Shown one piece after another: positions 2,986-27,085 of a DNA stretch of 32,000 bases. The stretch spans positions 390,001 to 422,000 of the forward strand of contig CP064992.1 of NCBI GenBank assembly GCA_016699935.1, written 5' to 3'. The DNA comes from Candidatus Saccharimonadota bacterium. Lineage in GTDB: Bacteria; Patescibacteriota; Saccharimonadia; Saccharimonadales; UBA4665. Position 1 is the first letter of the stretch. Each line of letters opens with the position of its first letter. The notes under the pieces are model-generated. The model was given only the letters and a program-made list of their open reading frames with translations, had not been told where the DNA came from and did no database searches. The position numbers were made by a program, and so were the translations under genes.

Positions 2986-3069
2986 ATGCTGCCAAGGCGG
3001 CTTGAAGCGCGTATGATGAGAGCAGATACTTGCTAGAACGCCTTCAAACTTGAACGAAAGGATAAGCTC

Positions 3070-5989: not shown

Positions 5990-6005
5990 ATCTGCATTAT
6001 ACACA

Positions 6006-6068: not shown

Positions 6069-6072
6069 CGTG

Positions 6073-6102
6073 TTATGCAGTGGCACGTAAGAGGGGTATA
6101 CT
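6073..6102 (+). promoter_or_regulatory. Candidate sigma70-like promoter for the phosphohexomutase gene
   Basis: TTATGC (6073-6078), 18-nt spacer, TATACT (6097-6102). Followed by a strong SD AGAGGAGG at 6117-6124 and ATG at 6128. Motif match only. Confidence 0.3.
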
Positions 6103-6127
6103 GGAAGACACAGTATAGAGGAGGCTC

Positions 6128-7474: not shown

Positions 7475-7493
7475 GAATGTAGAGGCATATTTC

Positions 7494-8240: not shown

Positions 8241-8292
8241 AGCACTGTTTACACTAGTAAACCCTTTCCGTTAGTCTCTGGTATTGACCCAC

Positions 8293-8322
8293 TTGCATTC
8301 AGTGCCATAAAAGATGTATAAT
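8293..8322 (+). promoter_or_regulatory. Candidate promoter upstream of the 8352 gene
   Basis: TTGCAT (8293-8298), 18-nt spacer, TATAAT (8317-8322). Motif match only. Confidence 0.35.
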
Positions 8323-8351
8323 AATGCTCGTGTTAATGTAAAATATAAACT

Positions 8352-8920
8352 ATGCAACGAAAAGTCTCTCGCAAGCGTTTTAGTCGCAAATACTACTTAG
8401 CCCTCTGCTGCTTGTTTCTAGTACTGTGCGCTGGAGCTGTTTTTGTGCTCGAAAAAGACATACAATTAACCTCATTGGCCCAGAAACTACCCCTACATCG
8501 GAAGGACTAACAAAAGAACAACAAGGAAAAGTATCGAAAGCAAATGCAGACGCAAAACAGGTTTTCTTGGATGAGGCTTCAAAAAATCCTCCAGACAAAG
8601 TTAGTACCGACAGCTCACCTAATACGTCGCCTCAGAAGGGCAGCCTTACACTTAGTGCCGAAAAGTCCTCTGCAACCCACGTGACTGTACTCACAAAAAT
8701 AATGGACATAACTGATGGTAATTGTGAATTAGCAGTAAGCAATGGTACTAAAAACACGACACAAACTGCGCCTGTTATATTTCAGCCCGAGTTTTCTTCT
8801 TGCGCTGGGTTTAGCGTGCCCGTAAGTCAGCTTGGTACCGGACAATGGGTTATATCTGTAACAGTAAAGCCAGTTTCGGGAGATAGTATTAATAGTAAAA
8901 TTGAACTGAGAGTTGATTGA
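8352..8920 (+). pseudogene. Small signal-anchored secreted protein of unknown function, one frame break
   Basis: ATG 8352 gives MQRKVSRKRFSRKYYLALCCLFLVLCAGAVFVLEKD (basic N-terminus plus a TM helix). That frame then stops at 8508. ORF 8426-8920 continues in the -1 frame (INLIGPETTPTSEGL...VTVKPVSGDSINSKIELRVD). The likely junction is the A5 run at 8452-8456. Confidence 0.6.
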
Positions 8921-8921
8921 C

Positions 8922-10754
8922 ATGAAAAGCTATTGATATCAGCTTCACTAATAGCCGTTGTAGTTGCATCAAATACGTTACTATTCACTTCTCATTCCCA
9001 AGCCGTTACGGCTAGCGATTGGAAGGCAGGTCTAATTATTGATGACGGCGTTTTTACTAATGCCAATGATATGTCTGTTGCAGATATCCAATCATTTTTG
9101 AATAAAAAGTGCCCAATTGTGATACTAACGGCACACAACCAGCAAGTGAATATGGTCGGTCGGATATAACTCATGCACAATATGCTGCACTTAAGGTTGG
9201 GCGGCACCGCCTTATGTGTGTCTACGCAACTTTTATGAAGTTCCAAAACCGCGCCTAGCCCAGGCATACCCGCAAATAACTATAGTGGCTCAATTCCTGT
9301 AGGTGCCATCAGCGCAGCGCAAATGATATGATGCTGCACAACAATACCGTATTAACCCCAAAGTTTTACTAGTTAAGCTTGGCACTGAATCTCACGGTCC
9401 CCTTACTTCCGATTCATGGCCGCTCAGTTGGCAATATACCTTTGCTATGGGAGCACACTGCCCAGATAGTGGCCCGGGTGGTAGCGCAAACTGTGACACG
9501 AACTATGCTGGTTTCTCGATTCAAATGCGCGAGGCGGCTTCACTCTTGCGCTGGTATCTCGATGGAATGACACAGTCATGGTGGCAATACAGAAAGCCCT
9601 ACCAGGTCAATAGTATCTTGTGGAAGCCGGTTGTATCTGGATGTGGATCCGGAAACGTTTACATTGAGTCGAAAGCAACGGCCGCACTGTATACGTACAC
9701 CCCATACCAACCAAATCAAGCGGCACTTAATAATATGTATGGCACGGGCGATGGTTGTAGCTCGTACGGCAACCGTAACTTCTGGCGTGTTTACAGCGAC
9801 TGGTTCGGCTCAACACGATATGGTAATTTAGTACGTACTAACGGTGGCGGTGTATACCTCATAGAAAATGGCTACAAGAGAGCCTTCCCGAGCGAAATTG
9901 TGTTCCTTAGTTATGCATATAACTGGTCTGGTGTCACCGTCATCAGCCCATCGGAGATGTCATCTATGCCCGATGGCGCAGTGGTACCATACAATATCCA
10001 CTTTAGAGATGGGCACCTCGTTAAATCTCAGTCTGGCGGTGTGTACGTAATAGACAATGGGTTCAAAAGGCCCTTCCCTAACGAGGGGTCTTCTACAGCT
10101 ATGGATATGGCTGGTCAGACGCTCAAGTTATTAGCAACGCTGAATTGAGTCTCATACCCGATGGTTCAGTGATGGCGTACAATGTCCACCTCAGAGATGG
10201 TCGTCTTATCAAATCGTCAAGTGGTGGAGTCTACCTAATTGAAAATGGCCTAAGGAGAGCATTTCCAAGTGAAACCGTATTCCTGAGCTACTCATACAAA
10301 TGGTCTGATGTACTAAATATTAGTTCCTCTGAGCTTTCACTCATACCTGATGGCGCTTATGACATACAATACCCATTTTAAAGATGGACGACATGTCAAA
10401 AATTCGTCGGGCGGTGTATACCAACTTGAAAACGGTGTTAAGCGAGCCTTCCCAAATGAGCTGACATTCCTCAGCTACTCATACAAATGGTCTGACGTAC
10501 TACCCATTAGCAACGCTGAATTGAATCTCATACCCGATGGTTCAGTGATGGGCTATAACGTCCATTTTAGAGATGGATATCTTGTCGCCTTCCCATCTGG
10601 CGGTATGTACGTAATAGACAATGGGTTCAAAAGGCCCTTCCCTAACGAGGGTGTATTCTTCAGCTATGGGTATAAGTTCTTAGACGCCCTGGTTATTAGC
10701 AAGTCTGAGCTGAATCTTATCCCTGATGGGGTGGCAATGCCCCCAAAAATCTAG
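8922..10754 (+). pseudogene. Secreted ~610-aa protein: signal peptide, conserved Cys-containing N-terminal domain (weakly glycan-hydrolase-like), five C-terminal tandem repeats; at least 7 frame breaks
   Basis: The stitched translation reads MK(K)LLISASLIAVVVASNTLLFTSHSQA|VTASDWKAGLIIDDGVFTNANDMSVADIQSFLNKKVPNCDTNGTQPASEYGRSDITHAQYAALKGWAAPPYVCLRNFYEVPKPRPSPGIPANNYSGSIPVGAISAAQMI.DAAQQYRINPKVLLVKLGTESHGPL...AMGAHCPDSGPGGSANCDTNYAGFSIQMREAA.... Breaks are at 8925-8928 (A run), 9104-9108 (A run), ~9193, ~9254, ~9328, 10085-10088 (G run) and ~10354. Confidence 0.75.
9825..10754 (+). repeat. Five tandem ~189-nt (63-aa) coding repeats
   Basis: Repeat unit: xLVKSxSGGVY[LV]I[ED]NGxKRxFPxExVFxSYxYxWSDVxxISxxELxLIPDGxVMxYNxHFRDG. 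Unit starts are near 9825, 10014, 10203, 10391 and 10580. Confidence 0.85.
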
Positions 10755-10783
10755 GTGCACTCCTTTTTCATGCAAATCAGTGT

Positions 10784-11159
10784 CTATTCTTTATACGGGA
10801 GAACAATTTTCTTACCATCTTTTCGCATGACAGATATATCCCATCCCTCTTTACGCTCTCTCGACTCGCCAAATAATACGCCCCACTTTGCTTTTGGAAA
10901 GTAAAGGTCCATCAACTTCTGGTGACTCTTTGACTGAAAATCCATCAAAGTCCGAATTTGAAAACCTGCTGTACTCTGATTCAATCAATTGGCGTTCAAT
11001 ATCTGTAAGCTCATTTTTCTTGAAGCTTAAGCCAAATAACACTGGCCTGATGCGGCCACCCTTAATCAAAATCTTCGTTTCAACTTCTGCAAAATAGACT
11101 TCGTAAAATTTTCCTAAATCATTCTCATGGTAATATCTTAAAATATTTTTCAGCATCAA
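10784..11159 (-). pseudogene. Hypothetical ~125-aa protein, last gene of the island operon, one frame break
   Basis: Pieces 10851-11159 (MMLKNILRYYHENDLGKFYEVYFAEVETKILIKGG...) and 10784-10984 (...HQKLMDLYFPKAKWGVLFGESRERKEGWDISVMRKDGKKIVLPYKE) overlap in adjacent frames. I recognise no domain. Confidence 0.45.
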
Positions 11160-11164
11160 CGATG

Positions 11165-11982
11165 CTATCTTTTAAAACCTCGCTCCTTGTAGAGTGTATA
11201 GTTGCTCCAGGCATGCTGAAGATCTGCTTTGTCGTCCATGAGGTATTCTTTAAATCTTATATAGTCAATATTACTTAAAATTTCGCAGCGCAGATCATCA
11301 CCAGCTTCGAGACAAAGCTTTTGTTTTTGGATACTGTCTTGCCCATCATGTATACGGTAGATAACCAGGTTCTTTTCTAGCAGCATGAACTTATATTTAT
11401 GTAGGAGCTCAGTCTGTACCATAAATCATAGTCTTGGGTTACGGGCAATGCCGGATTAAATCCCCACTTTCAATTAAAGCTATCTTTGGTATCAACAGTG
11501 CGCAACCATTTATTCCTACATCCGCGGAAGTCGCTAGAAATATATCAAAGTATTTAAATGTTTTCTTATTAATTAGCCCTGCTTTTTTATTCCACTAGGG
11601 TATAAGCTACGGGCATTACTGACAACAATCGTGTCATTTGCTCGCGATGATACTATCAGTTTTATTTGCTCTTCAATCTTTCTTTTTCATAAAGGTCATC
11701 ATGTGACAACCACGAAAAATACTCACCAGTCATTTTCTGGGTGCCAAAATTCAGCGTACTCGCTACGCCGCCATTCTCTTTATTGTAGTATCTGATCTTA
11801 CTTCCGTACGACTTGGCAATTTTCTCTGTTGCACCACCATCAGTAGAACCGTCATTAACAACAATGGTCTCAACATTTTTATATGTCTGGGCAAGAGCAC
11901 TATCTATGGCTTCTCTGAGGTAGTTAGAGCCATTGTAGACGGGGATTACGATGGAGACTTTAGGGGTATCCTCTGCCTTCAT
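11165..11982 (-). pseudogene. GT2-family glycosyltransferase, about 3 frame breaks
   Basis: N-terminal piece 11662-11982: [43 protein letters not shown]...WLSHDD (GT-A fold, DxD-type). The middle region contains QDYDLWYRL in another frame. C-terminal piece 11165-11422: LVIYRIHDGQDS. Confidence 0.75.
11876..11964. repeat. ~89-nt block, ~93% identical to 16027-16115 (paralogous GT2 5' regions)
   Basis: Hand alignment: tttttatatgtctgGgcaagagcactatctatggcttctCtGaggtagttagagccattgtagacGgggattacGatggagactttAgg versus the copy at 16027. 6 mismatches. Confidence 0.85.
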
Positions 11983-11983
11983 G

Positions 11984-13360
11984 TCAGATCTTCAGTTTGC
12001 TTCGAATTATTCGGAATGACCTAATAACTATTTTACTACCGGTCTTTGACAAACCTTCGTATTCAATATTGGCCTTGAGTCTTCTGGGAATCGTTGCGGC
12101 TTTAGACAGTAACAGAAGTGTCCCATTAGTATTTTTGTGCTGATTACCTTCGTTGATAGACGACGAAAAAGATTTCGTTCAGTTCTCTTGAGAGCACACT
12201 CGAGAATAGCTGTTGATTCTGAATCGAATAACCTAGCTCACTATCAAGTGTTTTATGAAGCTCATTTTTGTCACTTATCTCTATCAGTGAATTGATAAGA
12301 TAGCGCCACTTGTTACCTATATGGTTTGAGTCATATGACTCAACCTTCTTCTTTGCATTTTCACTTAGTTTTTTATATAGTCTATTGTCATTTAAGATAT
12401 CACTGACTCTTAGCGCCATCGAAGGAATGTCACCCTGTTCGGTAATGTAGCCATTTTCTCCATTGGTTATGATATCCTCAATGCCTGGTATGTAATTACA
12501 GACAGACGGCACCCCAAAGCACGCCGCTTCATTTAATACCATACCAAAACCTTCGCTATTTGATGTAAGCAATAAAACTCTTGCTTCAACATAATAATCT
12601 TGCACATTGCTTACTTCGCCCACAAAGCTCAGGCAGTCAGATGGTATGGCGAAATTATTGATTAAATCATTTACCGTAGCATTGTCGTTCGATCTTATGG
12701 GGACATCGTTATCATACTTCCCGACCAATACTAACTTTGCATCGGGTACATCTTTGAGAACTAATGAGAAACACTCTAGTATCCTGTCAATTCTCTTCAC
12801 ATAATCATTGAATCTACCAACGCAAATAATTGTCTTGCTCCTAGATGCCTTGTCAACCTTTTTCGAGACTTCAAAGTTGTTTGGGTTGCCAATAACGTAG
12901 TTATTCTGAACATACATTCCGCAGAGTGCAGCGTTAAAATTGTTTGGCCATACAATAGCATCACAGTTCTCGTAGGCGTTCAACCTTTTCTCAACTACAT
13001 CATAGTGCGCAGGGCTTTTATAAGGGTAAAAATAGTACTCGTGATTTGAGGCTATTGTTTTAATCTTTGTACCTACACAAAGATCGTAAAAGTTTTGTTG
13101 TTTGTCGAACAAATTGATACATCCAATCACTACATCAACATCTAAGAGTAATGCATAGGCCAAAATTAACGAATCGAAGTGCTCTACGAAGAGATCGTCA
13201 GCTATTTTTATACTCGTAACATACTCAGGAACATCAATATAACTCTTTCTCTCATCATATGGTGTAATTAAAAATATTTCATAATCATTCTTTTAATTCT
13301 CTAAAAAGAGTGGACATTACTCTTCCATGCCCCTGTCAACCAATGTGCCGAGCTAAACAT
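11984..13360 (-). pseudogene. GT4-family glycosyltransferase; intact core ORF 12144-13163, frame breaks at both ends
   Basis: Core contains LLLTSNSEGFGMVLNEAACFGVPSV (GT4 EX7E region). The N-terminus stitches from ATG 13360 (MFSSAH..VDRGMEEVMSTLFRELKKNDYEIFLITPYDE). The C-terminal tail stitches to ...[33 protein letters not shown], with TGA at 11984-11986, one nt before the next ATG (11982). Confidence 0.7.
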
Positions 13361-13373
13361 TATCTTCTTTTTG

Positions 13374-14326
13374 CTAGTTGGTTTTGCAAACTTTGAAATT
13401 AGCGTACCCGCTCCAGTAGCCATCTGGTGCTCTGGGTAAACAAGATAAATCGTCAAGCAAAATCATTTTTGCAACATCGTGACCATTCTGGACTATCGAC
13501 CCATATATAATTTTTTCTATTAGAAATGCGGCAGTTCTCGGAATCCAGCATCAAAAATTTGCTTATAAGAAGCGACCGCATTTTCCCTGCTGCCAAAGTA
13601 ACTAGTAATATCCTCATAGCTTAAACTATTTATAACCTCAGAATGAAGAAAATCATAATCATGCTCTGCCGTCGGACCAATTAACGATTCCTGCTCAATA
13701 TGTGAACCGTAGTTTAATAGCGATTGACTGACAACTCTGAAATTTGCACCAGCAGATATTAACCTGCTAAGCATCACATAGTCTTGATATGGCGGAGTGA
13801 ACTATCAAATTGCCCACTATTCTTAAACATTTCTGTTGGAATAAGCATCGCGCAAGTGTTTAGACGCATCTCTGTAGCGAATGCTATGTAACAACCCGGA
13901 TGCTGCTCCAGCCTAGTGTCTACAGTGCAGTCATGTACTGTTCGGCCATTTTGGTTAACGATTGCCCAATTTGAAACTATTATCTTACTGCTAGCTTTAG
14001 TGACTCGTTTGACCAGTTGATCTCACTCTATCCGGCTCGTAAGTATCACCATTCGACAGCCATGAAAAATATCGGCCAGTTGACTTCTCGACACCATAAT
14101 TAAGCGCTTCGGCTACGCTACTATTTGGTCTTGTAAGAAACGTTATCCTATCACAGCTATATGACTTAACAATTTGATCAGCTACTCCACGGCTAGTGAG
14201 TTCGTTGCCTACTACAATAATTTCGATGTTATCATACGTTTGAGCTATGACGCTGTCTAGGGTATCTTTGAGATAATTCGAGTTCTCGTGGACGGGGATG
14301 ATAATAGAAACTCTAAGTTTCATCAC
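13374..14326 (-). pseudogene. GT2-family glycosyltransferase, several frame breaks
   Basis: N-terminal piece 13997-14326: KLRVSIIIPVHENSNYLKDTLDSVIAQTYDNIEIIVVGNE...WLSNGD. Piece 13520-13777 contains HDYDF. The stitched C-terminus ...IIYGSIVQNGHDVAKMILLDDLSCLPRAPDGYWSGYANFKVCKTN ends at TAG 13374-13376. Confidence 0.65.
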
Positions 14327-14329
14327 TTA

Positions 14330-16130
14330 TCAATCTCCTTCTTGCTTCTGACTGCCTTTATTGTTGCTATACCCCGCGATAAAGTTTGCGGGTAGCACGA
14401 AATGGAATACTACTTTTACTTTTGCTTTTATTACTGAGTCTTTGGTTGGGGTTAGTTGAATTGCTTCAGGCTGAACGGAAACTACCGGTCCTTCATATAA
14501 CAGGTGGTTATGCTCTTTTCACGTATGTCACTATTTATCTCAAAGAAGTAATTACATAGTACGGCTATATCCTGGTCGTACTGTGAGTAATAATCATCGT
14601 TCAGTAGGTACGTAATCAAGTTTTTTATTCCGACTATCAGTTTATTGCTGTCTTGTGCGTGAGTTGTGTTGTCAACATTAACAACCGTCAGTGGCTCATT
14701 TATTAGCAGGATTTCTGACCATTTGGCAATCTCAAGCCAAAAACGAGTGTCCTCGCCAATTCTAATGCTTTCATCAAAATAGATGTTATTATCAAGCAAG
14801 AACTTCTTACGAACGATTACTGTCGGGGTTGCAATTGTACAGTTGCTTATTATCCGCGGTATGACAATGCCTGTTAGCCCCCGGATCGCACTTCACGATT
14901 TGTTTATCTCTCTCGCGCCTTGTATATGAAGTATAGCTAATGGTGGGGTTATGTTTCGCCATCATAGCCAGCTGTTTCTCGATTTTGTCTGGCATAAACT
15001 CATCATCAGAGTCCAGGAATGCAATATACTCACCGGTTGAATGTTCGATACCGTGATTACGCGCCTTCTGCTGGGCCTGAGTTGGCTTTCAGGGTGACAA
15101 GTTTAATGTTTTTATGCGCTTCTGTTAATTTCTTAATTTTACTTATATTATCTGTGGAGTAATCATCGACTAGCACAATTTCGATATCAGTATATGTTTG
15201 GTTTAGTGCAGAATTAATTGCATTGATGGTCTTATCCACTCTGTTATAAAAAGGTATGACCACCGATACTTTGGGATTAAAAGACAGTTGCTCAAGCTCT
15301 TTTTTGAGTTCTGAAAACTTATCCTGGGCATATGCTAGAGCACCGGTATATGGAGTCGAGTTAAGAAAATTGACCATTTCAAAATAGAAGTTATTTAGTG
15401 TGCCTTCATATTTTATCTTCTCGTTTTTTGGTAAGCTCTTTATCATGTCAATCCACAGTTCGTCGCCCTCTGCGACTACCCTCGGAGAGACCTGCGTGTC
15501 CTGTTCTGAATGAAGCCTCGTGATAGATACTACGTCTTCCATGTGAACGAAATCATACTTAGCCTCAATCCTGCGCCAATAATCATAGTCTTGAGTACAC
15601 CGAAGTTTCTCATCAAACGCACCCATTTCGTCTAAGATGGATTTGGGAATCAAAATAGTAATACCATTAACGCAGCCCCGAAGTAGTGAGTACCTGCTCT
15701 TCCTCGTCAACATTTCATGATTATGAACCACCGGTGTAATTTGCTGACCTATGAGAATTGAATAATTCGCATATAGAAATACTTTTTTAAAGTTCAGCTT
15801 CGCTAAGAAATTAATCTGTTTTTCAATCTTATCCTGATAGTATAAGTCATCGTGACTTAGCCAACAAAAATACTCACCTGACATTTTTTTAATTCCAAGA
15901 TTGATTGCAGTGGCGACGCCACCATTTTCTTTGGCGTAGTAGCTTATTTTATTACCATATGACTTGGCAATTTTTTCAGTTGCCCCATCATCGTTCGAAC
16001 CATCGTTCACAACGATTATTTCAATGTTTTTATATGTCTGAGCAAGAGCACTATCTATGGCTTCTTTTAGGTAGTTAGAGCCATTGTAGACTGGGATTAC
16101 TATGGAGACTTTGGGATTTCCAGCGTTCAT
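14330..16130 (-). pseudogene. Two-domain (GT2-GT2) glycosyltransferase, first domain intact, second domain frame-broken
   Basis: ORF 15057-16187 holds domain 1 ([43 protein letters not shown]...WLSHDD...QDYDYW) and the start of domain 2 (PKVSVVIPFYNRVDKTINAINSALNQTYTDIEIVLVDDYSTD). Pieces 14807-14995 and 14482-14799 continue domain 2 (EYIAFLDSDDEF in a shifted frame, then GEDTRFW). The likely start is the MNAGN ATG at 16130. The stitched stop is TGA 14330-14332. Confidence 0.8.
16027..16115. repeat. Partner copy of the 11876-11964 block
   Basis: See 11876-11964. It lies in the 5' region of the two-domain GT2 gene. Confidence 0.85.
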
Positions 16131-17080
16131 CTTTTTCGCCTTTTTACCGTATGCCCCAATTCTGCCAACTTCGAGGAAAAGCGCCATCTTTTGCTACTAT
16201 AGATTTCTCTCAGCTCTTTATTTAATGCCGATACTATTTGCTCAAGAGCGCCAATCTCTCATTTTACTGGCATACTCATTTTTGAGTACTTCATATTTGG
16301 CATCAATAATCTTTAGCTTTGAAGCCCTTTGATCTTGGATATCTAAAATATTTTTACAAAATTAAAGTTATTATCCCTTAACTCGTCAAACACCTCTTCG
16401 ACAGTCACTGCCCTTAGGGGAAATGTGAAATAATCACTAACTTTTGGCATATTATCTTTACTGGCAATGCAGATAATACTATTAATATGTATGCTTTTGG
16501 GAATCTTGTCGTAAGTTATGCCTTCAAGATCCTCATAGAAGAACTCAACATTTTTATACTTTGGGAAATCTTTTTCAGTAATACCTGTAAGTAAATGGTA
16601 TATATTACCTGGGGCTTCATTGTAGGGGACGTTGATACACAGCCTGTTCGTAAACTTATCTTCTTTTACGATAGCTAATCCATTTTTAATATGCTCTAGA
16701 ACATGTCTAGTCACAATATAAGAGTAGTCTTCCTTCTTTTTCAAGAATTTAATCGCATCGCAGATTTCATAGTCTATTTTTTTACTGTAATAGTTTCTTT
16801 TCGCCCACTCTAATGATTCCTCGGAAACATCGATGCTCTTTACAATATTTGTTTGTTCTATGTTAGCATAAGTGAACGAAGCATACCCTGTTCCAAAACC
16901 TAAATCCAATATAGATATATCTTTAAGATTAAGGGAAGCTACATCCTTCTTGATTATCTGCTTAAAAAAATGATGGGAGCTAAAATGCCTCACTAGTTCA
17001 CAATCATCGTGTGATAAAAAAGGGACCAATCTTTCTCCGTCATTAAAGATAGAATCCACATCAATATTTTCTTGACCCAT
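16127..17080 (-). pseudogene. Class I SAM-dependent methyltransferase with a ~70-aa C-terminal coiled-coil/basic tail; tail reachable only through two frame changes
   Basis: ORF 16343-17098 carries motif I ILDLGFGTGY. The likely start is ATG 17080 (TAATG overlap with the epimerase stop). After the TAG at 16343, the adjacent frame reads (K)NILDIQDQRASKLKIIDAKYEVLKNEYASK. The original frame then resumes as EIGALEQIVSALNKELREIYSSKRWRFSSKLAELGHTVKRRKR. It ends in a TGA (16127-16129) that overlaps the next ATG (16128-16130). Confidence 0.65.
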
Positions 17081-18183
17081 TAGACCCCCTTCTTCCATAC
17101 TGTCCGATTAATATACCCTGTGTAGCTCATGATTATCCTCACGCCCTTTTGTGAGACATTATCGACATCGTAGTCCTTTACTATAGGCATTCGAGTAGAT
17201 GTCACGATCTTAATTGAATCTAGGATAGTATCCTTATCGAGGCCAGTCATTATGAGCGTACCCTCGTCCATGCCCTCTGGTCGTTCGTGCGCCTGACGCA
17301 CGGTAATAGCTGGGAACCCTAACAGTGACGATTCCTCGGTAATGGTGCCACTGTCAGAGATAACACAGTAGGCATTCTGCTGGAGCTTAATATAATCCGC
17401 AAATCCAAGAGGTTTCATTGGCTGCACTAGTTCGTGCAGCTTGATGCCCTTGGCGTCAATAAGCTTCTGCGTCCTCGGGTGAACCGAGAAAATGACCGGC
17501 ATCTTATAGGTTTCGCAGATTGCGCTGATAGATTCAATAAGGTCAGTGAAGTTTTTCGCTATCCACATTCTCTTCACGGTGAGCGCTAAGTAAAAATATC
17601 CTTTCGGGCTTAAACCTAGCTGATCTAGCACATTACTATCGTCAATCGATTGTTTATGCTTGGATAGTACTTCTTTCATACTAGAACCAACTTTAATAAC
17701 TGTTTCTGGACGAATACCCTCTGCGACCAAATATCGCCTGGCATGTTCGGTTAGTGTCATATTAATATCACTTAAGTGATCCACCACCTTTCGGTTGAGC
17801 TCCTCGGGGACTCTTTGGTCAAAGCATCTATTGCCCGCCTCCATATGAAATACAGGTATTTTGTTTCTTTTTGCAGAAATGGATGCTAGGCAAGAATTTG
17901 TGTCGCCATACAAAAGTACGGCGTCTGGCCTATGTTCTTTAAATATCTTATCTGACTCAATAATCACGTTGCCTATTGTTTCAGCTGCATCTTTACCTGC
18001 GGCATTCATAAATATGTCTGGCTTTCTAATGCCCATACCATCGAAAAAGATTTCGTTCAGTTCATAGTCATAGTTCTGACCGGTGTGAACGAGCACGTGC
18101 TCGGTGTATATATCGAGTTCTGGGATGACGCATGCTAACTTGATAATCTCTGGCCTTGTACCAACTATTGTCATGACTTTCAT
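17080..18183 (-). CDS. UDP-N-acetylglucosamine 2-epimerase family (non-hydrolysing; FnlC/CapG/WbvD-like); ORF open but contains a locally scrambled 12-codon stretch
   Basis: 367-aa ORF: MKVMTIVGTRPEIIKL...VLLYGDTNS...ISDSGTITEESSLLGFPAITVRQAHERPEG. The family HREEN motif is present only in an alternative frame between 17552 and 17596 (see finding). Confidence 0.85.
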   Translation of the reverse strand: MKVMTIVGTRPEIIKLACVIPELDIYTEHVLVHTGQNYDYELNEIFFDGMGIRKPDIFMNAAGKDAAETIGNVIIESDKIFKEHRPDAVLLYGDTNSCLASISAKRNKIPVFHMEAGNRCFDQRVPEELNRKVVDHLSDINMTLTEHARRYLVAEGIRPETVIKVGSSMKEVLSKHKQSIDDSNVLDQLGLSPKGYFYLALTVKRMWIAKNFTDLIESISAICETYKMPVIFSVHPRTQKLIDAKGIKLHELVQPMKPLGFADYIKLQQNAYCVISDSGTITEESSLLGFPAITVRQAHERPEGMDEGTLIMTGLDKDTILDSIKIVTSTRMPIVKDYDVDNVSQKGVRIIMSYTGYINRTVWKKGV

Positions 18184-19030
18184 TTTGTTACCCTCTGACT
18201 TTCGCTATACAGGGACTCGTGTGCGGTAACCCAGTCAGCCATTTCTTCCACCATCTGAGCATAGCTCGGTATTTCAAAATCAAAATCTGTTGTCCTCATC
18301 AAGCTTTTATTGCTTACGTAATCACTTTTACGATTGATGATAATGTCTTTATTGAAACTCTCTTTGAACAAAGAAATAAGGCTAAATTTATCTATCGTTT
18401 CATTGTTCACCGCATGCCGGAGGCCGGTGAGATTATTGACGATTGCTTTTTCCATACATTTTGCAAATTGGAGTGTGGTCACCCCTGTCCAGATAACTTT
18501 GTCGAATCCATTGGTTTCTTTTTCTTGGTTCATAAACCACTGGAACAGACCAATTCCATTTTGGTTTACATCTGGGCCAACTATTGACGTACGGAGCGTT
18601 ACGCTCGACTCATTATTCGTTTCACCGAGGCCCTTAGACCGTCCATAAAAGTCATTTGCATTTCTAAAGCTGTTTTCGGTGTACTCGCCCGCCTTGCCGT
18701 CAAAGACGCAGTCGGTTGAAACATGCACAAATTTTGCGCCTTTAGCTCTACATATGCCATCGACATGGTGCGGCAGATAGCTATTGATGAGGACCGCCAG
18801 TGGCTTGTTGTCTTCTGCCACCTTGTTCAATATACCAATACAGTTAATGACGGCGTCCGGTTTAAAATCCTCAACAAATGCTTCAATATCGTTCATATTT
18901 TTGTGGCATCAAATATGTAATCGGCGCCATCGAACCGAGACGTCCCTCGTACGTCATGACCCTGTTCCTGGAAATACAAACGTACAATGTGGCCAAGCAT
19001 TCCATCAGAACCTAGTACAAGTAATCTCAT
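18180..19030 (-). pseudogene. RmlD-like NAD(P)-dependent sugar-nucleotide 4-reductase (WbvR/FnlB-role candidate), one frame break
   Basis: ATG 19030 gives MRLLVLGSDGMLGHIVRLYFQEQGHDVRGTSR (Rossmann GxxGxxG), then a stop. ORF 18180-18896 continues with DAVINCIG...VHVSTDCVFDG...Y..SK. ATGA overlaps at both ends (19027-19030 and 18180-18183). Confidence 0.75.
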
Positions 19031-20022
19031 GTTTCGACCTCCCCATTTTTATTAGGAGCTCGATTGTCCCCTTTTCGTCCAATCGTTCGGTAACATCGGA
19101 GCTATACGGTCGGTATTCTTTACTTCACCGCTACCCTCCGGGTAGAATGTATTGTAGTTCATGTCGCGGTTATCCATGGGGATTCTGAAGAAATTACCCA
19201 TGTCTTCGCTCTTTGAAACTTCTTCACTCGTGACCAACACCTCATGCGCTTTTCGCCATGCCTAGTGCCAATAATGACCGTTTTTGCATTTGACCCTTTA
19301 TATTTCTTTACTGCGGCCGCTAAGGTAGCGATGGTTGCTGCTGGCGCCTTCTGCACGAAAAAGTCACCCTGTTTGCCATGCTGAAATGCAAAATAACCAA
19401 ATCTACTGCGTCTGCTAGTGTCATCATAAATCGAGTCATGTTAGGGTCGGTTATGGTTAGTGGCTTGCCTTCTGAGATAAGTTTATAAAAAGAGGTATCA
19501 CTGAGCCACGTGAACCCATAACGTTTCCGTATCTCGTTAGGCAAATAGTCGTCTTTGCGCCCACGCCAAGCTGGCGAGCCTTGGCGACGATGATTTTCTC
19601 CATCATGGCTTTGCTGGTGCCCATCGCATTTATGGGGTAGGCCGCTTTGTCGGTACTGAGGCAAATTATCTTTTTACACCATGGTTTATGGCGGATGTGA
19701 GGACATTGTCTGTACCGATCACATTCGTCTTTACCGCTTCGAGTGGAAAGAATTCACAAGATGGTACTTGCTTTAGAGCGGCCGCATGAAATATATAATC
19801 AACGCCTTTCATCACAACATCAACACTGCTCATGTCTCGCACGTCGCCGATGTAGAATTTGAGCTTCGGGTTGTTATAATGCTTTCGCATGTCATCTTGC
19901 TTTTTCTCATCGCGCGAAAAGATTCGGATTTCACTAACGTCAGTATGTAAAAATCCTTTGAGCACTTCATTACCAAAAGAGCCCGTGCCACCCGTAATTA
20001 GTAATACTTTGTCTCTAAACAT
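19027..20022 (-). pseudogene. UDP-N-acetylglucosamine 4,6-dehydratase/5-epimerase (FnlA/CapE/WbjB/WbvB family), about 3-4 frame breaks
   Basis: N-terminal piece 19666-20022, MFRDKVLLITGGTGSFGNEVLKGFLHTDVSEIRIFSRDEKKQDDMRKHYNNPKLKFYIGDVRD...HAAALKQVPSCEFFPLEAVKTNVIGTDNVL, is near-consensus for this family. Pieces 19320-19664, 19159-19356 and 19052-19240 continue it. SD GAGGAG lies upstream. Confidence 0.85.
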
Positions 20023-20050
20023 ACACTCTCCTCGCAGTATGCATTATGTT

Positions 20051-21233
20051 TCAATTACCGCACTCTTCACCCTCTTTCGTACTTGTACTCAAGCCTCGAG
20101 GGGCCCCCAACGTCCACTTTCCATCATCGATTACTCTGAACGCAAATGCCATCTCTTTTATATCAATCACTCCTCCTGTTTTACTCATCACCGCTGCCGA
20201 TGCCGAATATCTCCCGGGTCCAATGTCTAACTTTATAGTACAGGTAAAATCAGCATGAGTCAGCCCTGTGCAATCGTCGAGTTACTACCAAATACATAGA
20301 CACCATCACTCCGTGTGATGCCAGTCCCCATTATGTGCTTTGGTCGGGTCGAATTTTCCTTCCAAGATACGTGAAGTGATAATTCTTCGGATGGCAGGTA
20401 AACCTCTTTCACTGGGAGTTTGATAATAAACTGTGAGTCCTTGGGTTTCTTAGTGTCCTTGGCATTTTCAGTGCAGTTTCTTGAGCGTCGTCTTTCTTTG
20501 TGTTCATGTCCGAATACTGCTCGGCGACACTATCCACAGAGCCTATGTGCACTATCTTTCCATCATCTATGAGCATTGCTCTGGTACAAAGATTTCGTAC
20601 GGTGCTCATATCGTGCGTCACGAGTACTACCGTTTGCTTGGTTCTCCTGTATTCCTCAAATATTCTGAGGCACTTTTGTTGGAACGCTTCGTCGCCGACC
20701 GCGAGGACCTCGTCGAAGATGAGTATGTCGTTTTTGGCTTTGATGGCTATGGAAAATGCAAGCCGCACCTGCATGCCAGAAGAATAGTTCTTGAGCTTCT
20801 TATCCATATGCTCGTGGAGTTCAGCAAAATCTACAATTTCATCGTACATTCCGTCTACGACCTTACGCGGATAACCAAGCAGTGAGGCGCTTAGGTACAC
20901 ATTGTCTTTCCCGCTGAGTTCGGGGTTGAACCCAACACCAAGTTCTATAAAAGGAGTAAGATTCCCATTGATTTCGACCGCACCACTATCTGGCGCATAT
21001 ACACCAGCGAGTATTTTTAGCAGCGTGCTTTTGCCGCTACCATTTCGGCCAACTATACCAAAGAACTCGCCTTTCTTAACCTCAAAGTCAATTCCATCCA
21101 ACACTTTTTGGCGCTGTTTTATGTGCTTTTTGCCAGCATTTACCAACAGCTGTTTTATGGACGTGTTCTTACTTTCTGCAATCTCAAAATTTGTATGTAG
21201 ATTATGTACTTTAACTGCTATATCGTCAGTCAT
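20051..21233 (-). pseudogene. wzt: Polysaccharide ABC exporter ATP-binding protein with C-terminal carbohydrate-binding-like domain (Wzt type), 2-3 frame breaks in the C-terminal third
   Basis: ORF 20409-21233 holds Walker A GRNGSGKST, signature YSSGMQVRL and Walker B ILIFDE. Downstream frames read ENAKDTKKPKDSQFIIKLPVKEVYLPSEELSLHVSWKENSTRPKHIMGTGITRSDGVYVFGSNSTIAQG, then LTHADFTCTIKLDIGPGRYSASAAVMSKTGGVIDIKEMAFAFRVIDDGK. The stitched length is ~390 aa. Confidence 0.78.
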
Positions 21234-22025
21234 CTATATATTCTCCGCAAACAATCTTGCTTGACTCTTGAAGTAGATACTCGACAGCACTACCGATATG
21301 GCAACTATAGCAATGGGGATCAGGCCGAACCATAACGGGGCTATCTGCCACACATTAATAGCATCTGGAGTAACTAGCATATACCGCGCATCCTGAATAA
21401 TTTGCGTCATGGGATTAAGGAAAAAGTACTGGCGATACTGTTCTCCAACATACGTTAGTGGGTAGAGAATTGGGGTTGCATAAAATGCAGCCTGTAGGCC
21501 AACTTCCCAGATGTATGTAATATCTCGGAACTTTACATACAGTGCCGACAAGAAGAATGCCAAAGCTGTTGAAAAATAAACAATTCCGCAAATGGAAGTG
21601 GCAACAGTAGCCAAAGCCAAGTTGGACTGACTCCATTGATAAATGCAAAAAGAATAACTACTACTAGGTTGATTCCCAGATTGATTAGTGCTGACGCAGA
21701 AGAGCTCAAAACCGTCAGGTAGCGAGGAATTGCTATTTTTCTAATCAAATCGCCCTTACCCACAACCGCACTCATACCAATAATCGTTGACTCCGCAAAG
21801 AAGTTCCAAATCACGATTCCCAGAAGAAGGTAAACGGGATAGTGTGGTACGCCCTTGCCTATCTTAAAAATGTAAGTAAAAACAACGTACAGGATCACAA
21901 ATAGAAATAGCGGGCGGAGCACCGACCACAGATATCCAAGTGCTGAGCTCTGGTATCTTACCTTAAAATCAGCACTAAACCATTTCTCTCAATATTGAGC
22001 GATTTTTTATCGACAGATATCTCAT
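21234..22025 (-). pseudogene. wzm: Polysaccharide ABC exporter permease (ABC-2 type, Wzm/TagG-like), at least 2 frame breaks
   Basis: ATG 22025 gives MRYLSIKNRSILREMV, then a shift into SADFKVRYQSSALGYLWSVLRPLFLFVILYVVF... (piece 21533-21922), then piece 21234-21620. Multi-TM throughout. It abuts the wzt start (21233). Confidence 0.75.
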
Positions 22026-22036
22026 ATGCTCAAGTG

Positions 22037-22045
22037 ATTATACCA
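22037..22045 (-). promoter_or_regulatory. Candidate extended -10 element (TGGTATAAT) for the island operon
   Basis: The reverse complement of 22037-22045 is TGGTATAAT, 11 nt upstream of the wzm ATG (22025). No good -35. Motif match only. Confidence 0.3.
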
Positions 22046-22122
22046 CTGATTAGTCATAACGTATTAGTGGCCGCCCCACACGCTATTTGCTATCTCCTCC
22101 CCATGGGTCATACTATGTACTG

Positions 22123-23240
22123 ATGAAACGAGTCGCACTCATCAGAAATTCATACTCCTACGACTTCGGTGGGGCGGAAATTTATCCCATTAACTTAGCG
22201 AAGCTGTTGCCCGCCCATGGCTACAAACCAATAGTGCTTTCTGCAAACAAAAACACTAACCTATGCCAAAGATGCGCACGTAGAAACTGTTCGTTCGCCC
22301 TGGTGGTCATTCCAAAATTTTAGTGGAACGGGGCTGCTGCTATTCCCTCTCTACGTTTTCTGGCAGCTTTTTGTGACCTTGTGGTACGTTGTATTCTTTT
22401 TGTGGAAGCACATTGATGTAGTCCACGCCCAGAGCCGAGATGATTTCATCACTGCCACCCTTGCAGCTAAAATCCTGGGCAAGAAGGTGGTTTGGACCGA
22501 TCACGCAGATCTGAAATACATTTATATGCACCATAAAAAATGGTACAAGAACCCTGTTGAAAGTTAGTTTACCTAGCGGGTAAATTGGCCGACCACATCA
22601 CAATAGAGAGTCGTAGCGAGAAGAAGCTAATTGAAGAGTCTTTGGGCGGCAATTGCCTAACAACTACTTGGTTATCCATCTTGGCGTAGTAGACAAATAC
22701 AAGCCCGCTGCGCGAGACCGCGACACAGTAGTTTTGGTTTCCACCTCCAGACTAGTCAAGGCTAAGGGAATTGGAGAGATGATTGAGGCATTCAAATTAG
22801 TTGATGATGCGAATGCTAAATTAAAGATTTGCGGGGATGGCCCTGACGCTGCTTATTTTAGATCCTTAGCCAGCGGGATTAGTAACATTGAATTTCTAGG
22901 CCACGTGGAAGATGTAGTTCAAATTCTGCGCGAGTCAGACATACTAGTACACCCGAGCTATCATGAAGGTTTTGGACTCTCTTTAGTGGAGGCGGAGATG
23001 TGTGGTCTGCCCATAATCGCCTGCAACGTAGGAAGCATACCCGAGATTGTTAAAGATGGTACGAGTGGTATTTTAGTGGAGCCAAAAAACGTTGATGATC
23101 TAGCCAAAGCCATGGCTCTTCTAATAAAAAGTCACAAACTGAGAATCGACATGGGCCAAGCTGGACGCAAAATATTTCTGGATAACTTCCAGTTCGACAG
23201 AATCGTTCAAGAAAAGTTCCTTCCTATTTACTATTTGTAA
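22123..23240 (+). pseudogene. GT4-family glycosyltransferase, three frame breaks
   Basis: MKRVALIRNSYSYDFGGAEIYPINLAKLL... continues after breaks near 22250 (A run), ~22558 and ~22645 into piece 22653-23240, which contains VHPSYHEGFGLSLVEAEMCGLPIIACNVGSIPEIV. All three breaks behave as 1-nt deletions. Confidence 0.8.
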
Positions 23241-23258
23241 TTTTTATGTTACAATAAA

Positions 23259-24074
23259 ATGATGCCACCTCTCCGTTCTACCCCTGACTATTCACCCAAA
23301 AGGGTATTAGTTCACAACGCCCTTGAGGAGGCCTGGACTGCATACCTGCACCCTACCGAGCCAACCGAAGACATCGACCTGGTATGGGCATTATCTGCTC
23401 CCGGTACCGTAAAAACCCCGGCACAGTTTGAGCAAGAACCGGAAAACCCCTACAATGGCGAGTCTTTCAATGTTGGAATTGTTAATCACGCAGTCAGTGT
23501 TGTATTAAAGGTAACAGCGCTTCGCACCGGGAAGACAGTGGAAGAAGTCACAAAAGACGATATTATTAATCGCGGCCCCAAGCTGTTGTATAACGGTGAA
23601 TCGCTCAAAACCAAGGGAACGCGTTTTTCGAGTCAAAACGAAGACTTTTTAGAATTATGCAGGCACGTAGATTTTCCGATTCCTTTTCAAAACATAATCA
23701 TTGGTGAGATAGCTGAAGCTCACACACCTGCTCAGGTAAAACAGCTCGCTGAATTACTGCGGCGGGACGATGGTGTTCCACCTCCACGTAAGGTAGCCGT
23801 AGTCTGTGGTATACCCCACATGGTACGCACGGGTCGGTATTTGCAGCATTTTCGAACACTATTCTCTGATGGGACCAGCTTTGTACCTTCAGTCATTCCC
23901 CAGGGCAGCAAAGAAAAAATGAGCAAATTAACAGCCCTAGAGGTTAGAAAAGCGCTGTTTTACGCAGCTGTCGGCCATCTAGACCCAAGCTCTATCTTCT
24001 TCCCAAATGGCGTTCCTGACGCTCGTCCTCGCAATGTTCTACGCGACCAACGCACTACTAGACAGCACAAGTAG
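23259..24074 (+). CDS. Hypothetical protein, tentatively DUF218/YdcF-like (ElyC/SanA superfamily)
   Basis: Intact 271-aa ORF. The functional call rests on weak resemblance only: AEAHTPAQVKQLAELL plus KVAVVCGIPHMVRTGRYL resemble the DUF218 NT-ENA / VTS-HM-RA pattern. Confidence 0.5.
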   Translation: MMPPLRSTPDYSPKRVLVHNALEEAWTAYLHPTEPTEDIDLVWALSAPGTVKTPAQFEQEPENPYNGESFNVGIVNHAVSVVLKVTALRTGKTVEEVTKDDIINRGPKLLYNGESLKTKGTRFSSQNEDFLELCRHVDFPIPFQNIIIGEIAEAHTPAQVKQLAELLRRDDGVPPPRKVAVVCGIPHMVRTGRYLQHFRTLFSDGTSFVPSVIPQGSKEKMSKLTALEVRKALFYAAVGHLDPSSIFFPNGVPDARPRNVLRDQRTTRQHK

Positions 24075-24183
24075 GCCAGATTAAACATAATTAACTCAGT
24101 GTTTAACCAGAGCCGGACTAACTAGTTGGCGCTATTATCAACAATTCAAGAAGCTCTACGCTGAGGCGAGGAGAGAACTCAAG

Positions 24184-24192
24184 TGCTATAAT
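24184..24192 (+). promoter_or_regulatory. Candidate extended -10 element (TGCTATAAT) upstream of the GT4 pair
   Basis: TG at 24184-24185 and TATAAT at 24187-24192, 66 nt upstream of ATG 24258. Motif match only. Confidence 0.3.
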
Positions 24193-24257
24193 ACGATCTG
24201 TCGATTAGCATATTGGTTGTTCACTGGTCTATACGTGATGCGGACATATTTGTTTCT

Positions 24258-25415
24258 ATGAAAAAACTAGCAGTATTAAAATCCTTTTTGATGCCGGGCC
24301 GTTGGTCAATGGCAACAAGACTGGTGTTGGCAGAACGACCGAGGGGTTAGTTTTGGCGCTCGCTAGTGAGTTTCCCGAACAAATTGAATTGGTCGGTCAC
24401 TATTTTGATTTCATGAACCGCAAGAAGAATATTGAAGTCCCTGTAGCTTCAAATATTCGCTACAGACGCACAGTATTTATACCAGGTAAGGTCTTCAATA
24501 TGCTGAGGCGACTTGGCGTTTGGATACCTTTCGAGCTACTCGCAAAAGAACGAGGAGACTTTCATATTTTCCCTAGCTTTATTGGCTGGCCTAGTCTATT
24601 CCGCACACCTAGCGCACCCTTTATACACGACATAACATATATTGACTACCCAGAATATGTTAATGGCCCAGCTCAATTTGATTTAAAAACCATCATACCC
24701 AGAACAGTTCGCAGAGCGGCTTTTATTATCACTAATTCCGAGTCTTCTAAACAAGGAATATTACGCGAGTACCCTACGGCAAGGAAGCCTATCATTGTCG
24801 AACATTTGCCCGCTGTAGGCGCTGTGTTTATTTCTAAAAAGAAGCTGCTACGTGCTTACAAAGGCTGGGAGTCACGGGCAAATACCTGTTGTTTTTCGGA
24901 ACTTTGGAGCCACGCAAAAACCTGGTTGGGCTTATCGACGCATACCAAAAGCTAAAACCCATCGTACGCAACCAATACGCTCTGGTAATTGGTGGTGGTA
25001 AAGGCTGGAAGGATGATGAAATTATAAGTAGCCTCAACCGGCTCAGGGCGTCTGGCGCAACAATCTTTCAGACGGGATTTGTCAGCGACAAAGAGCGAGC
25101 AGCGCTATATATGGGCGCAACATTGTATGTGATGCCCTCACATTATGAAGGTTTTGGCATGCAACTTCTTGAGGGTATGACCTATGGTGTTCCCATGCTC
25201 GTGAGTGACATACCTGTGCTGCGCGAGGTCGCAGGAGATGCCGCAGCTTACTGCGGGACAGACCCCTCATCTATCGCTGTCGCACTTGAAAATCTGCTCA
25301 GTACTCCTGACCGGCGCGAAAAACTAGTCCAGGCGGGCAAAAAGCGGTTGCACAGTTTTTCTTGGAAAATGTTGCACGTGACATATACGCTAACATATTG
25401 GAGCACGTTCAATGA
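24258..25415 (+). pseudogene. GT4-family glycosyltransferase, three frame breaks
   Basis: MKKLAVLK then a shift (~24285, T run) into ILFDAGPLVNGNKTGVGRTTEGL (piece 24302-24955). A second shift (~24880) leads into LFFGTLEPRKNL...MPSHYEGFGMQLLEGMTYGVPMLVSD. A third shift (~25364) leads into ENVARDIYANILEHVQ. The stop TGA 25413-25415 overlaps the next ATG. Confidence 0.8.
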
Positions 25416-26501: not shown

Positions 26502-26508
26502 TAGTCTA

Positions 26509-27067: not shown

Positions 27068-27085
27068 AAGTGTATTTTACCAGCT

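Follow-up and report, generated by a model that had tools for sequence, protein, structure and literature searches.

The described systems that come closest to the locus analyzed here are the O8/O9a system of Escherichia coli (Wzm-Wzt, WbdA/WbdD), the wall polysaccharides of Gram-positive bacteria (the rhamnose-rich polymers of streptococci and lactococci, the S-layer glycan of Geobacillus, and TagGH/TarGH) and the serotype loci for O-antigen and capsule. The E. coli O8/O9a system starts with WecA, and among E. coli serotypes variation in the Wzt C-terminal domain is independent of that in the ATPase domain. Saccharibacteria have an envelope of the Gram-positive type. With respect to the sugar precursors, WbvB, WbvR and WbvD make UDP-L-QuiNAc (PMC6765297). 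The window analyzed in this work (32,000 nucleotides [nt] from a Candidatus Saccharimonadota bacterium, assembly GCA_016699935.1, contig CP064992.1, positions 390,001 to 422,000 of the forward strand) contains, at positions 10755-22122, the operon at the centre of a chromosomal locus for a cell-surface glycan, and the locus is ancestral in this Candidatus Saccharibacteria group. All parts of the operon are of known kinds, namely ABC-transporter-dependent glycan assembly, a WbvBRD-like sugar pathway and a variable cassette of low G+C content (GC); it is an ordinary type of locus, but in an under-studied phylum, and no paper describing the Saccharibacteria version of this locus was found in a literature search. 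It is highly probable that the region as a whole is a resident, ancestral surface-glycan operon whose low GC is a standing property, in which the cassette and the C-terminal domain of Wzt have been exchanged, and whose frameshifts are assembly errors. A preliminary description of this DNA had recognized an ABC-transporter-dependent glycan operon, and this content was borne out by the presence of Wzm/Wzt, sugar enzymes, a methyltransferase and glycosyltransferase (GT) domains, while its interpretation as a horizontally acquired insert in a native locus was not.

Gene calls were guided by intact homologues from related contigs, and Pfam and NCBIfam models were run on the repaired proteins. Related Saccharibacteria contigs or loci are designated by L-numbers, L001 being assembly GCA_009612975.1 and L083 a Logan metagenome contig. 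The operon is composed of the following elements (aa, amino acids):

21234-22025, minus strand: wzm, ABC-2 permease of the glycan exporter (262 aa repaired; Pfam ABC2_membrane, 7.6e-13)
20051-21233, minus strand: wzt, ATPase of the exporter (Pfam ABC_tran, 2.2e-20)
approximately 20466-21233 and approximately 20051-20460: nucleotide-binding domain and C-terminal carbohydrate-binding-type domain of Wzt, respectively
19027-20022, minus strand: first sugar enzyme (fnlA), UDP-GlcNAc 4,6-dehydratase/epimerase of the FnlA/CapE/WbvB type
18180-19030, minus strand: second sugar enzyme (fnlB), RmlD-like 4-reductase, WbvR-like, 283 aa
17080-18183, minus strand: third sugar enzyme (fnlC), non-hydrolysing UDP-HexNAc 2-epimerase of the FnlC/WbvD/WecB family
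10755-17079: variable cassette (methyltransferase, G1, G2 and G3), the most AT-rich part (approximately 38.4% GC)
16127-17080, minus strand: class I S-adenosylmethionine methyltransferase, approximately 315 aa (Pfam Methyltransf_25, _31, _23 and _11)
14330-16130, minus strand: G1, glycosyltransferase with two GT2 domains, approximately 596 aa (Pfam Glycos_transf_2 twice, 3.5e-63)
11984-14326, minus strand: G2, GT2-linker-GT4 fusion glycosyltransferase, approximately 774 aa
10777-11982, minus strand: G3, single-domain GT2 glycosyltransferase, approximately 394 aa (Pfam Glycos_transf_2, 5.8e-26)

The operon thus comprises nine genes, all on the minus strand. The preliminary description, which had placed every gene on that strand as well, counted eleven, because the genes it listed as a GT2, an "unknown" and a GT4 are one 774-aa GT2-linker-GT4 protein, the "unknown gene" corresponding to the linker of G2; its domain count of four GT2 and one GT4 was correct according to Pfam on the repaired proteins. 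The genes are tightly coupled, and all six junction motifs were found at the positions reported earlier: ATGA overlaps at 19027-19030, 18180-18183 and 16127-16130, TAATG at 17078-17082, TAG abutting ATG at 21233/21234, and TGAcATG at 11980-11986. An identical nine-gene architecture was found in L083, where all genes are intact (248, 385, 333, 283, 367, 335, 606, 777 and 384 aa). No tRNA was found for the region, no direct repeats at the 10755/22122 boundaries and no integrase among the open reading frames (ORFs) scanned, in agreement with the earlier observation. The scan for promoters and terminators between 10500 and 22400 stayed at chance level (26 vs. 31 ± 6; 13 vs. 9 ± 3). The largest repeat was a 275-nt direct repeat with 79% identity (11690-11964 and 15841-16115), which corresponds to the paralogous N-terminal GT2 domains of G3 and G1, both inside the cassette, and which could act as a substrate for internal recombination.

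In order to evaluate gene order in related organisms, a synteny set was assembled from a genome scan of species-representative genomes with fnlC (79 loci) plus look-ups, and order was compared in 14 Saccharibacteria loci together with L083 and L084 (16 in all). The core order wzm-wzt-fnlA-fnlB-fnlC was found in L001, L003, L005, L006, L008-L016, L049 and L079, and the operon was also present in L083 and L084. The divergent GT4 gene adjoins wzm in most loci, glycosyltransferases, with an optional methyltransferase, follow the core in 15 of the 16 (L005 is the exception), and the convergent repeat-protein gene comes next in 12 of the 14 loci compared, with glmM or glmS beyond it in four. Upstream, dnaA and yidC-khpB were found in L003 and L010 (rnpA was called in L003), and yidC-khpB in L016 and L049. 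In the window the operon lies a few kb from the rnpA-yidC-khpB group, which occupies the right end and is adjoined by dnaA in two relatives; the arrangement of rnpA-yidC-khpB beside dnaA is typical of the replication-origin region. The same neighbours were present wherever a related contig reaches far enough, including the relative with 94-99% identical flanks. The shared chromosomal position of the operon in relatives thus makes it a resident locus and not a foreign insert. The best fnlC matches were likewise from Saccharibacteria (79-89% identity), followed by those from Dojkabacteria, Bacilli, Clostridia and Paenibacillus (mostly 70-76%) and from Bacteroidota (62-72%). The horizontally acquired island of the preliminary description was therefore not upheld, as the same operon, the same neighbours and the same GC dip occur in relatives; a syntenic and compositionally similar operon in close relatives, which that description had itself named as evidence to the contrary, is what was found.

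The GC content of 10755-22122 was 40.9%, compared with 49.5% in the left flank (1-10754) and 47.9% in the right flank (22123-32000). The region is thus AT-richer than its flanks, as had been judged by eye, yet not in the mid-30s percent as had been estimated: 35% GC was reached by a single 1-kb window only. The dip has two levels, 38.4% in 10755-17000 and 43.9% in 17001-22122, and the neighbouring GT4 gene (44.7%) and repeat-protein gene (45.3%) are close to the latter. GC at third codon positions (GC3) was 0.54-0.60 in the genes for the flanking polyprenyl-phosphate glycosylphosphotransferase (PGT), glmS, glmM and yidC, approximately 0.48 in the core and 0.35-0.40 in the cassette, and tetranucleotide correlations were 0.37-0.61 between the region and its flanks and 0.62-0.74 among flank segments. 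The same pattern was observed in relatives. The variable segment lay 2.4-10.8 GC points under the flanks in all 13 loci measured, including the window (mean 6.5, window 10.3), with the core intermediate between the two, and the dip was present in 12 of 12 relatives. Across loci, the GC of the variable segment followed that of the flanks (r = 0.86-0.88), from L016 (flanks 33%, cassette 28%) to L011 (50% and 42.5%), and in L083, which has the same cassette type, values of 44-47% were found, compared with 52% for a GT4 gene in its flank. The locus is consistently low in GC in all 12 related contigs measured, and this does not mark a recent import.

Comparison with L001 separated the conserved from the variable parts of the locus. 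L001 aligned to positions 17089-26369 in three blocks with 94-96% nt identity, and its genes are intact. Gene by gene, nt identity to L001 was 98.6% for GT4_401, 97.8% for hyp271 and 95.9% for GT4_309 in the right flank, 96.2% for wzm, 90.7% for the Wzt ATPase domain, 88.1% for fnlA, 100% for fnlB and 97.8% for fnlC in the core, and 85% for the repeat-protein gene. In positions 10755-17079, by contrast with these, no collinear homology to L001 was found, only patchy DNA matches of 64-75%; the cassette of L001 has a different methyltransferase (Methyltransf_24 type) and different glycosyltransferases. Within Wzt, the nucleotide-binding domain was 91% identical to that of L001, but the C-terminal domain only 33%, and 57-67% identical to those of L003 and L083. 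The closest cassette (G1, 81%) was found in L083, whose epimerase is only 86% identical. The cassette and the Wzt C-terminal domain have thus been exchanged by replacement between conserved flanks. The exchange amounts to homologous replacement among Saccharibacteria, as in serotype switching, and not to insertion of a foreign element, and the earlier idea of an island was right in spirit in that the AT-rich half (10755-17079) is replaceable, although not by foreign insertion. It was considered whether the type of Wzt C-terminal domain strictly follows that of the cassette or of the methyltransferase, and this was not cleanly supported: L083 shares the cassette and a similar Wzt C-terminal domain, but its methyltransferase domain differs. 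The identity of the core to L001 is itself strongly mosaic, which suggests recombination breakpoints inside the conserved core.

Approximately 28-30 frame changes were found in the nine operon genes, and more in the flanking genes; nearly all of those read through in the preliminary description are deletions of 1-2 nt within homopolymers. In the blocks alignable to L001 (17-26.4 kb), 23 of 25 indels were deletions in the window, mostly in A, T or C runs, and their frequency depended on the length of the run in L001: shortening affected seven of eight 6-nt runs, all three 7-nt runs (two of which are now 5 nt long) and two of 32 5-nt runs, and shorter runs almost never, so that 10 of 11 runs of at least 6 nt were shortened. 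Contraction that goes in one direction, depends on run length and tends towards five bases is characteristic of homopolymer miscalling in nanopore sequencing. Base differences with respect to L001 were mostly synonymous, and the 2,422 repaired codons included no stop codon derived from a substitution, while these genes have 16 frameshifting indels. The marks of a pseudogene cluster (nonsense substitutions, relaxed dN/dS, two-way indels) were accordingly not detected between the window and L001. According to these sequence patterns, the frameshifts most likely arose as errors in an assembly based on long reads, and the organism itself probably has intact genes; the reading through ("stitching") of broken frames in the preliminary description was justified.

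The same picture was obtained at the level of single genes. The wzm product was 98-99% identical in amino acids to that of the intact 263-aa gene of L001 (25 synonymous and 3 nonsynonymous codon differences), with one homopolymer deletion (A6 to A5, approximately at 21573) and a 1-nt insertion near 21977, and two frameshifts were found in the C-terminal part of Wzt. Six 1-nt deletions occur in fnlA (19041, 19119, 19249, 19393, 19491 and 19671), together with 92 synonymous and 13 nonsynonymous codon differences, while a single deletion (T6 to T5 at 18899) occurs in fnlB. The ORF of fnlC remains open because its two contractions (T7 to T5 at 17557 and A6 to A5 at 17597) sum to 3 nt, at the cost of a 12-residue out-of-frame patch, which reads YLALTVKRMWIA in the window and LL(A/S)(H/T)REEN(V/L)D(S/N)E in the six homologues shown; the REEN motif is lost, and the deposited NCBI protein (P0001, identical to the window ORF) carries the scrambled patch. 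P0001 and a second NCBI protein, to which the 376-aa fragment of G1 is 100% identical, are both named Candidatus Saccharibacteria bacterium and lie on a 1,226,308-bp contig. In the cassette, two frame changes were located in the methyltransferase gene (near 16350 and 16255), three in G1 (approximately at 15064, 14880 and 14515), at least five in G2 and about six 1-nt deletions in G3. G1 is collinear with the gene of L083, G2 with the intact genes of L083 (777 aa) and L011 (779 aa), and G3 with those of L083 (384 aa) and L049 (361 aa). All non-self homologues of G1 with at least 59% identity and near-full query coverage are 580-621 aa long, and the best of them (P0122, 606 aa) is 81% identical.

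Alternative explanations were weighed against this evidence. Under one of them, a foreign island of recent acquisition makes up the entire AT-rich block of 11.4 kb between the repeat-protein and GT4 genes, in line with its GC of 40.9% against 48-50% in the flanks, the drop in GC3, the somewhat lower tetranucleotide correlation with the flanks (0.37-0.61 vs. 0.62-0.74) and the compact one-strand operon. However, the related contigs that reach far enough show the same neighbours, the GC dip is common to all relatives measured and scales with host GC, the best matches are from Saccharibacteria, the core is as close to L001 (88-100% nt identity) as the right-flank genes are (96-99%), and there is no tRNA, no boundary repeat and no integrase among the scanned ORFs; the explanation is largely refuted and we regard it as very unlikely. 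Equally slight is the chance that the core is native and only the cassette (10755-17079) was recently imported from outside the phylum, for example from Firmicutes. The cassette is indeed the most AT-rich part (38.4% GC), it is absent from the closest relative L001, and G1 also has homologues of 49-61% identity in Dojkabacteria, Bacilli, Romboutsia and Paceibacterota. These named matches are nevertheless clearly more distant than those from Saccharibacteria. One of the top three non-self G1 matches (81%, 78%) and many lower ones of 66-76% lie on contigs equal in length to those of fnlC matches of 82-86%, and the two G1-match contigs inspected (L083 and L084) both carry the Saccharibacteria-type operon, in L083 with the identical nine-gene architecture. 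In addition, cassette GC follows host GC across relatives.

A further alternative concerns the frameshifts, which could be real if the glycan locus had recently been inactivated by slippage under relaxed selection, or were expressed through slippage. In its favour, nearly every glycan gene is affected, while glmS, PMM/GlmM, PGT, yidC and rnpA are open; since these open genes keep 6-8-nt runs uncontracted, contraction is not universal, and the truncated products have been deposited at NCBI as proteins. On balance this explanation is improbable, given that the change in 10 of 11 long runs was always downward, with two 7-nt runs going straight to 5 nt, that nonsense substitutions were absent from the 2,422 codons, that differences from L001 are mostly synonymous and fnlB, free of substitutions, nonetheless has a deletion, that the six fnlA deletions fall within 630 nt, some of them outside homopolymers, and that the conserved housekeeping gene khpB is affected likewise; nor does relaxed selection account for the five long runs in the half of G1 whose frame is intact.

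Several observations weigh against the interpretation of the region as a resident operon with exchanged parts and assembly-derived frameshifts. What is called host GC here represents approximately 20 kb of flanks and is not genome-wide, and the GC dip of the window (10.3 points) is at the upper end of the range of its relatives. Gene-by-gene identity ranks across relatives were weakly correlated, which hints at mosaicism without being a formal recombination test; because of this poor correlation, lateral exchange within the phylum seems to touch the core too. As regards the frameshifts, 33 runs of at least 6 nt (6-8 nt) survive, clustered at 1-8.6 kb and 15.07-17.02 kb, and stretches with such runs include intact ones (five runs in the N-terminal half of G1, two in glmS and three in the methyltransferase gene at 7494-8240). 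A uniform homopolymer-error model is ruled out by these long runs surviving in frame-intact genes; the errors are distributed in blocks, as though accurate stretches had been joined to inaccurate ones, and this fits a hybrid or partly polished assembly. About seven of the frame changes in the methyltransferase, G1 and G2 genes are of the +1 type, due to either an insertion or the loss of 2 nt, and for them the only comparison was with the DNA of L083, too noisy at 69% identity to tell these two apart. The Wzt_C domain of the window's Wzt is marginal (30.1 bits vs. the Pfam cut-off of 30.4). Finally, some of the functional assignments are predictions from homologues: UDP-L-RhaNAc and/or UDP-L-QuiNAc as the putative product of the sugar enzymes, chain-end recognition by the C-terminal domain of Wzt, the final acceptor, and a capping role for the methyltransferase (by analogy only).

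Families of the core proteins were assigned as follows. Although marginal in the window, Wzt_C was recorded for the orthologues in L001 (weakly), L003 and L083. The closest solved structure to Wzt was a 404-aa ABC transporter (8dku/7k2t, 4e-62), followed by TagH/TarH; 8dku, 7k2t and 6an5 are structures of the Wzm-Wzt O-antigen exporter of Aquifex aeolicus. Short versions of Wzt (255-281 aa), without the C-terminal domain, were observed in L010, L014, L016 and L084, and a link between this domain and capping is not simple, because L014 has two methyltransferase genes yet a short Wzt. The family assignments confirmed a three-enzyme pathway to a UDP-2-acetamido-2,6-dideoxy-L-hexose, in keeping with the three UDP-L-HexNAc enzymes proposed earlier. 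The intact L001 orthologue of the fnlA product scored 516.7 bits on the FnlA equivalog model (NCBIfam TIGR04130), under the cut-off of 730, although clearly within the same superfamily. The fnlB product matched only two dTDP-4-dehydrorhamnose reductase (RmlD) models in NCBIfam (best TIGR01214, 77.8 bits) and did not match NF047837 (WbcJ-type reductase); its PDB matches included RmlD reductases and no WbjC/CapF-type reductase. The fnlC product passed TIGR00236 wecB (227.9 bits, cut-off 210). With an RmlD-only fnlB and a FnlA score below cut-off, the trio is therefore more like WbvB/WbvR/WbvD than FnlABC.

In the cassette, Pfam placed Glycos_transf_2 at residues 6-130 and Glycos_transf_1 at residues 483-656 of G2. 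The methyltransferase has a helical, probably coiled-coil, C-terminal tail and was 53% identical over its whole length to the product of a 316-aa ORF in L014. The PDB search with this protein gave nothing informative, its best hit being an unrelated methyltransferase (E = 0.0027), with no match pointing to a relation to WbdD. By analogy, it is a candidate chain terminator or modifier.

Based on the families involved, a sequence of steps can be proposed. GlmS and a PMM/GlmM-type mutase would feed the UDP-GlcNAc pool, from which a WbvB/FnlA-type dehydratase-epimerase, an RmlD-like reductase and a WecB-family 2-epimerase would form UDP-L-RhaNAc and/or UDP-L-QuiNAc. The flanking PGT would prime polyprenyl phosphate on the inner side of the membrane, and G1, G2 and G3, probably joined by the flanking GT4 enzymes, would extend the polymer in the cytoplasm. 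The methyltransferase with its helical tail may then modify or cap the chain, and Wzm/Wzt would export the finished product, the C-terminal domain of Wzt probably recognising the chain end. Attachment to the envelope would be carried out by a step outside the genes of the window, in which no LCP ligase or S-layer oligosaccharyltransferase gene was seen. Since the envelope is of the Gram-positive type, the product would be a wall-linked or membrane-linked polymer. The permease/ATPase pair beside glycosyltransferases and an initiating polyprenyl-phosphate transferase are the elements of ABC-transporter-dependent assembly, and no Wzx/Wzy-type family was found among the ORFs scanned, which did not include every small ORF.

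The flanking genes relevant to the locus were the following:

8426-10754, plus strand: left boundary, tandem-repeat protein gene with units of approximately 63 aa (189 nt), convergent with the operon and frameshifted here
22120-23240, plus strand: right boundary, divergent GT4 glycosyltransferase, approximately 372 aa (Pfam Glycos_transf_1, 2.3e-40, C-terminal fragment)
418-1866, plus strand: PGT, intact and outside the operon (Pfam Bac_transf, 2.1e-55)
30226-30689, minus strand: khpB/jag (KH and R3H domains), housekeeping gene adjoining yidC

PGT passed the TIGR03025 model (325.9 bits, cut-off 295.6) and is likely the initiating enzyme. Its location outside the operon in GC-richer DNA, together with glmS/PMM, had been noted in the preliminary description and was confirmed; the module is nevertheless not "self-contained", as had been claimed, given that it depends on this flanking PGT and probably on flanking GT4 genes. 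The right-boundary GT4 was 95% identical to a 309-aa product of L001 and 52-68% identical to the product of a 374-aa gene of L083, with three or four frameshifts in the window. At the left boundary, the stop codons of G3 and of the convergent repeat-protein gene are 22 nt apart. The repeats of the latter (families D2-D4) are spaced 187-189 nt, with a recurring LIPDG...GGVY.IENG.KR.FP motif (gene at 17452-19101 in L001); the product had no Pfam or PDB match and could be a wall-binding or glycan-binding protein. The khpB gene is split approximately at 30426 by a deletion in an A-run, now A5, and tblastn with the intact 157-aa protein of L003 gave two collinear pieces in frames -1 and -3 that meet at GAGTACAAAAACAGCGC.

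Other features of the flanks were also observed. A methyltransferase gene in the left flank (7494-8240, plus strand) has a GC3 of 0.36 amid GC-rich neighbours; a 48%-identical homologue lies directly upstream of wzm in L014 (5817-6542), and because of this adjacency the gene may be a part of the glycan system that changes its location. Frameshifts have also split, or apparently fused, GT4 genes of the host-GC flanks (1856-2985, plus strand; 4906-6073, minus strand; 24260-26073, plus strand), and GT4-gene indels with respect to L001 (24263, 24836, 25366, 25533 and 26048) are all in homopolymers. A large gene at 28083-29967 (minus strand) is distributed over at least three ORFs, and the GDS(Y) motif (VLGMGDSYISGEGA) of its middle piece points to an SGNH/GDSL hydrolase. 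The segment at approximately 26.4-30.2 kb has no counterpart in L003, where a GT4 gene directly follows khpB. The genome scan gave no relatives of the 271-aa hypothetical protein (23259-24074).

These results have consequences for the annotation of similar regions. A drop in GC across a polysaccharide operon does not count as evidence for a foreign island, and where frames have to be stitched, homopolymer errors should be looked for first by comparison with relatives; this contig carries systematic indel errors that distort deposited proteins, among them a 376-aa fragment of the enzyme of approximately 600 aa encoded by G1. The locus is a testable candidate for the main surface glycan of a Saccharibacteria group, and its predicted rare sugar (L-QuiNAc or L-RhaNAc), together with a strain-variable part, bears on the recognition of epibionts by hosts and phages. 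A broader proposal, which we hold tentatively and at slightly less than an even chance, is that a clade of Saccharibacteria diversifies a conserved L-RhaNAc/L-QuiNAc and Wzm/Wzt locus in a serotype-like manner, with the cassette and the Wzt domain swapped separately and with possible roles for hosts or phages and for the repeat protein. If so, host range or phage sensitivity could depend on the variable glycan, because Saccharibacteria live attached to host bacteria, and the conserved neighbour with 63-aa repeats could be the wall-binding partner of the glycan.

Compared with the E. coli O8/O9a system, the locus shares an exporter pair with an extra Wzt domain (of the Wzt_C type, although marginal in the window), multi-domain GT2/GT4 enzymes, a methyltransferase with a helical tail and the lack of a Wzx/Wzy-type gene among the ORFs scanned, and, as in E. 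coli, its Wzt C-terminal domain varies independently of the ATPase domain. It differs in that the methyltransferase has no detectable sequence match to WbdD and the initiating enzyme is a WbaP/EPS-type PGT instead of WecA; to our knowledge, a Saccharibacterium host would also have no lipid A-core acceptor, WaaL or outer membrane. With the Gram-positive wall polysaccharides it shares a monoderm-type host, ABC-2 export, a polyprenol-linked polymer made intracellularly and a conserved core with a variable glycosyltransferase region, and TagH/TarH were the second-best structural matches for its Wzt; unlike in the rhamnose-rich polysaccharides, however, the sugar route leads from UDP-GlcNAc to L-RhaNAc/L-QuiNAc and not to dTDP-L-rhamnose (RmlABCD).

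The sugar enzymes resemble WbvB/WbvR/WbvD (Vibrio cholerae O37, the Rickettsia pso operon, Proteus) in being three adjacent genes of the same order and types, as judged from domain types and gene order and not from direct sequence alignment, and differ from FnlABC/CapEFG (UDP-L-FucNAc), whose second enzyme is a WbjC/CapF-type reductase and not RmlD-like. With serotype loci for O-antigen and capsule, none of which has been described for the Saccharibacteria phylum in the literature searched, the region has in common its low GC, its conserved flanks, the replacement of glycosyltransferases between 94-99% identical strains and its mosaic identity. In contrast to those loci, the exporter and sugar-precursor genes are the conserved part here, and the Wzt C-terminal domain forms a second swapped patch, separated from the cassette by 3 kb.

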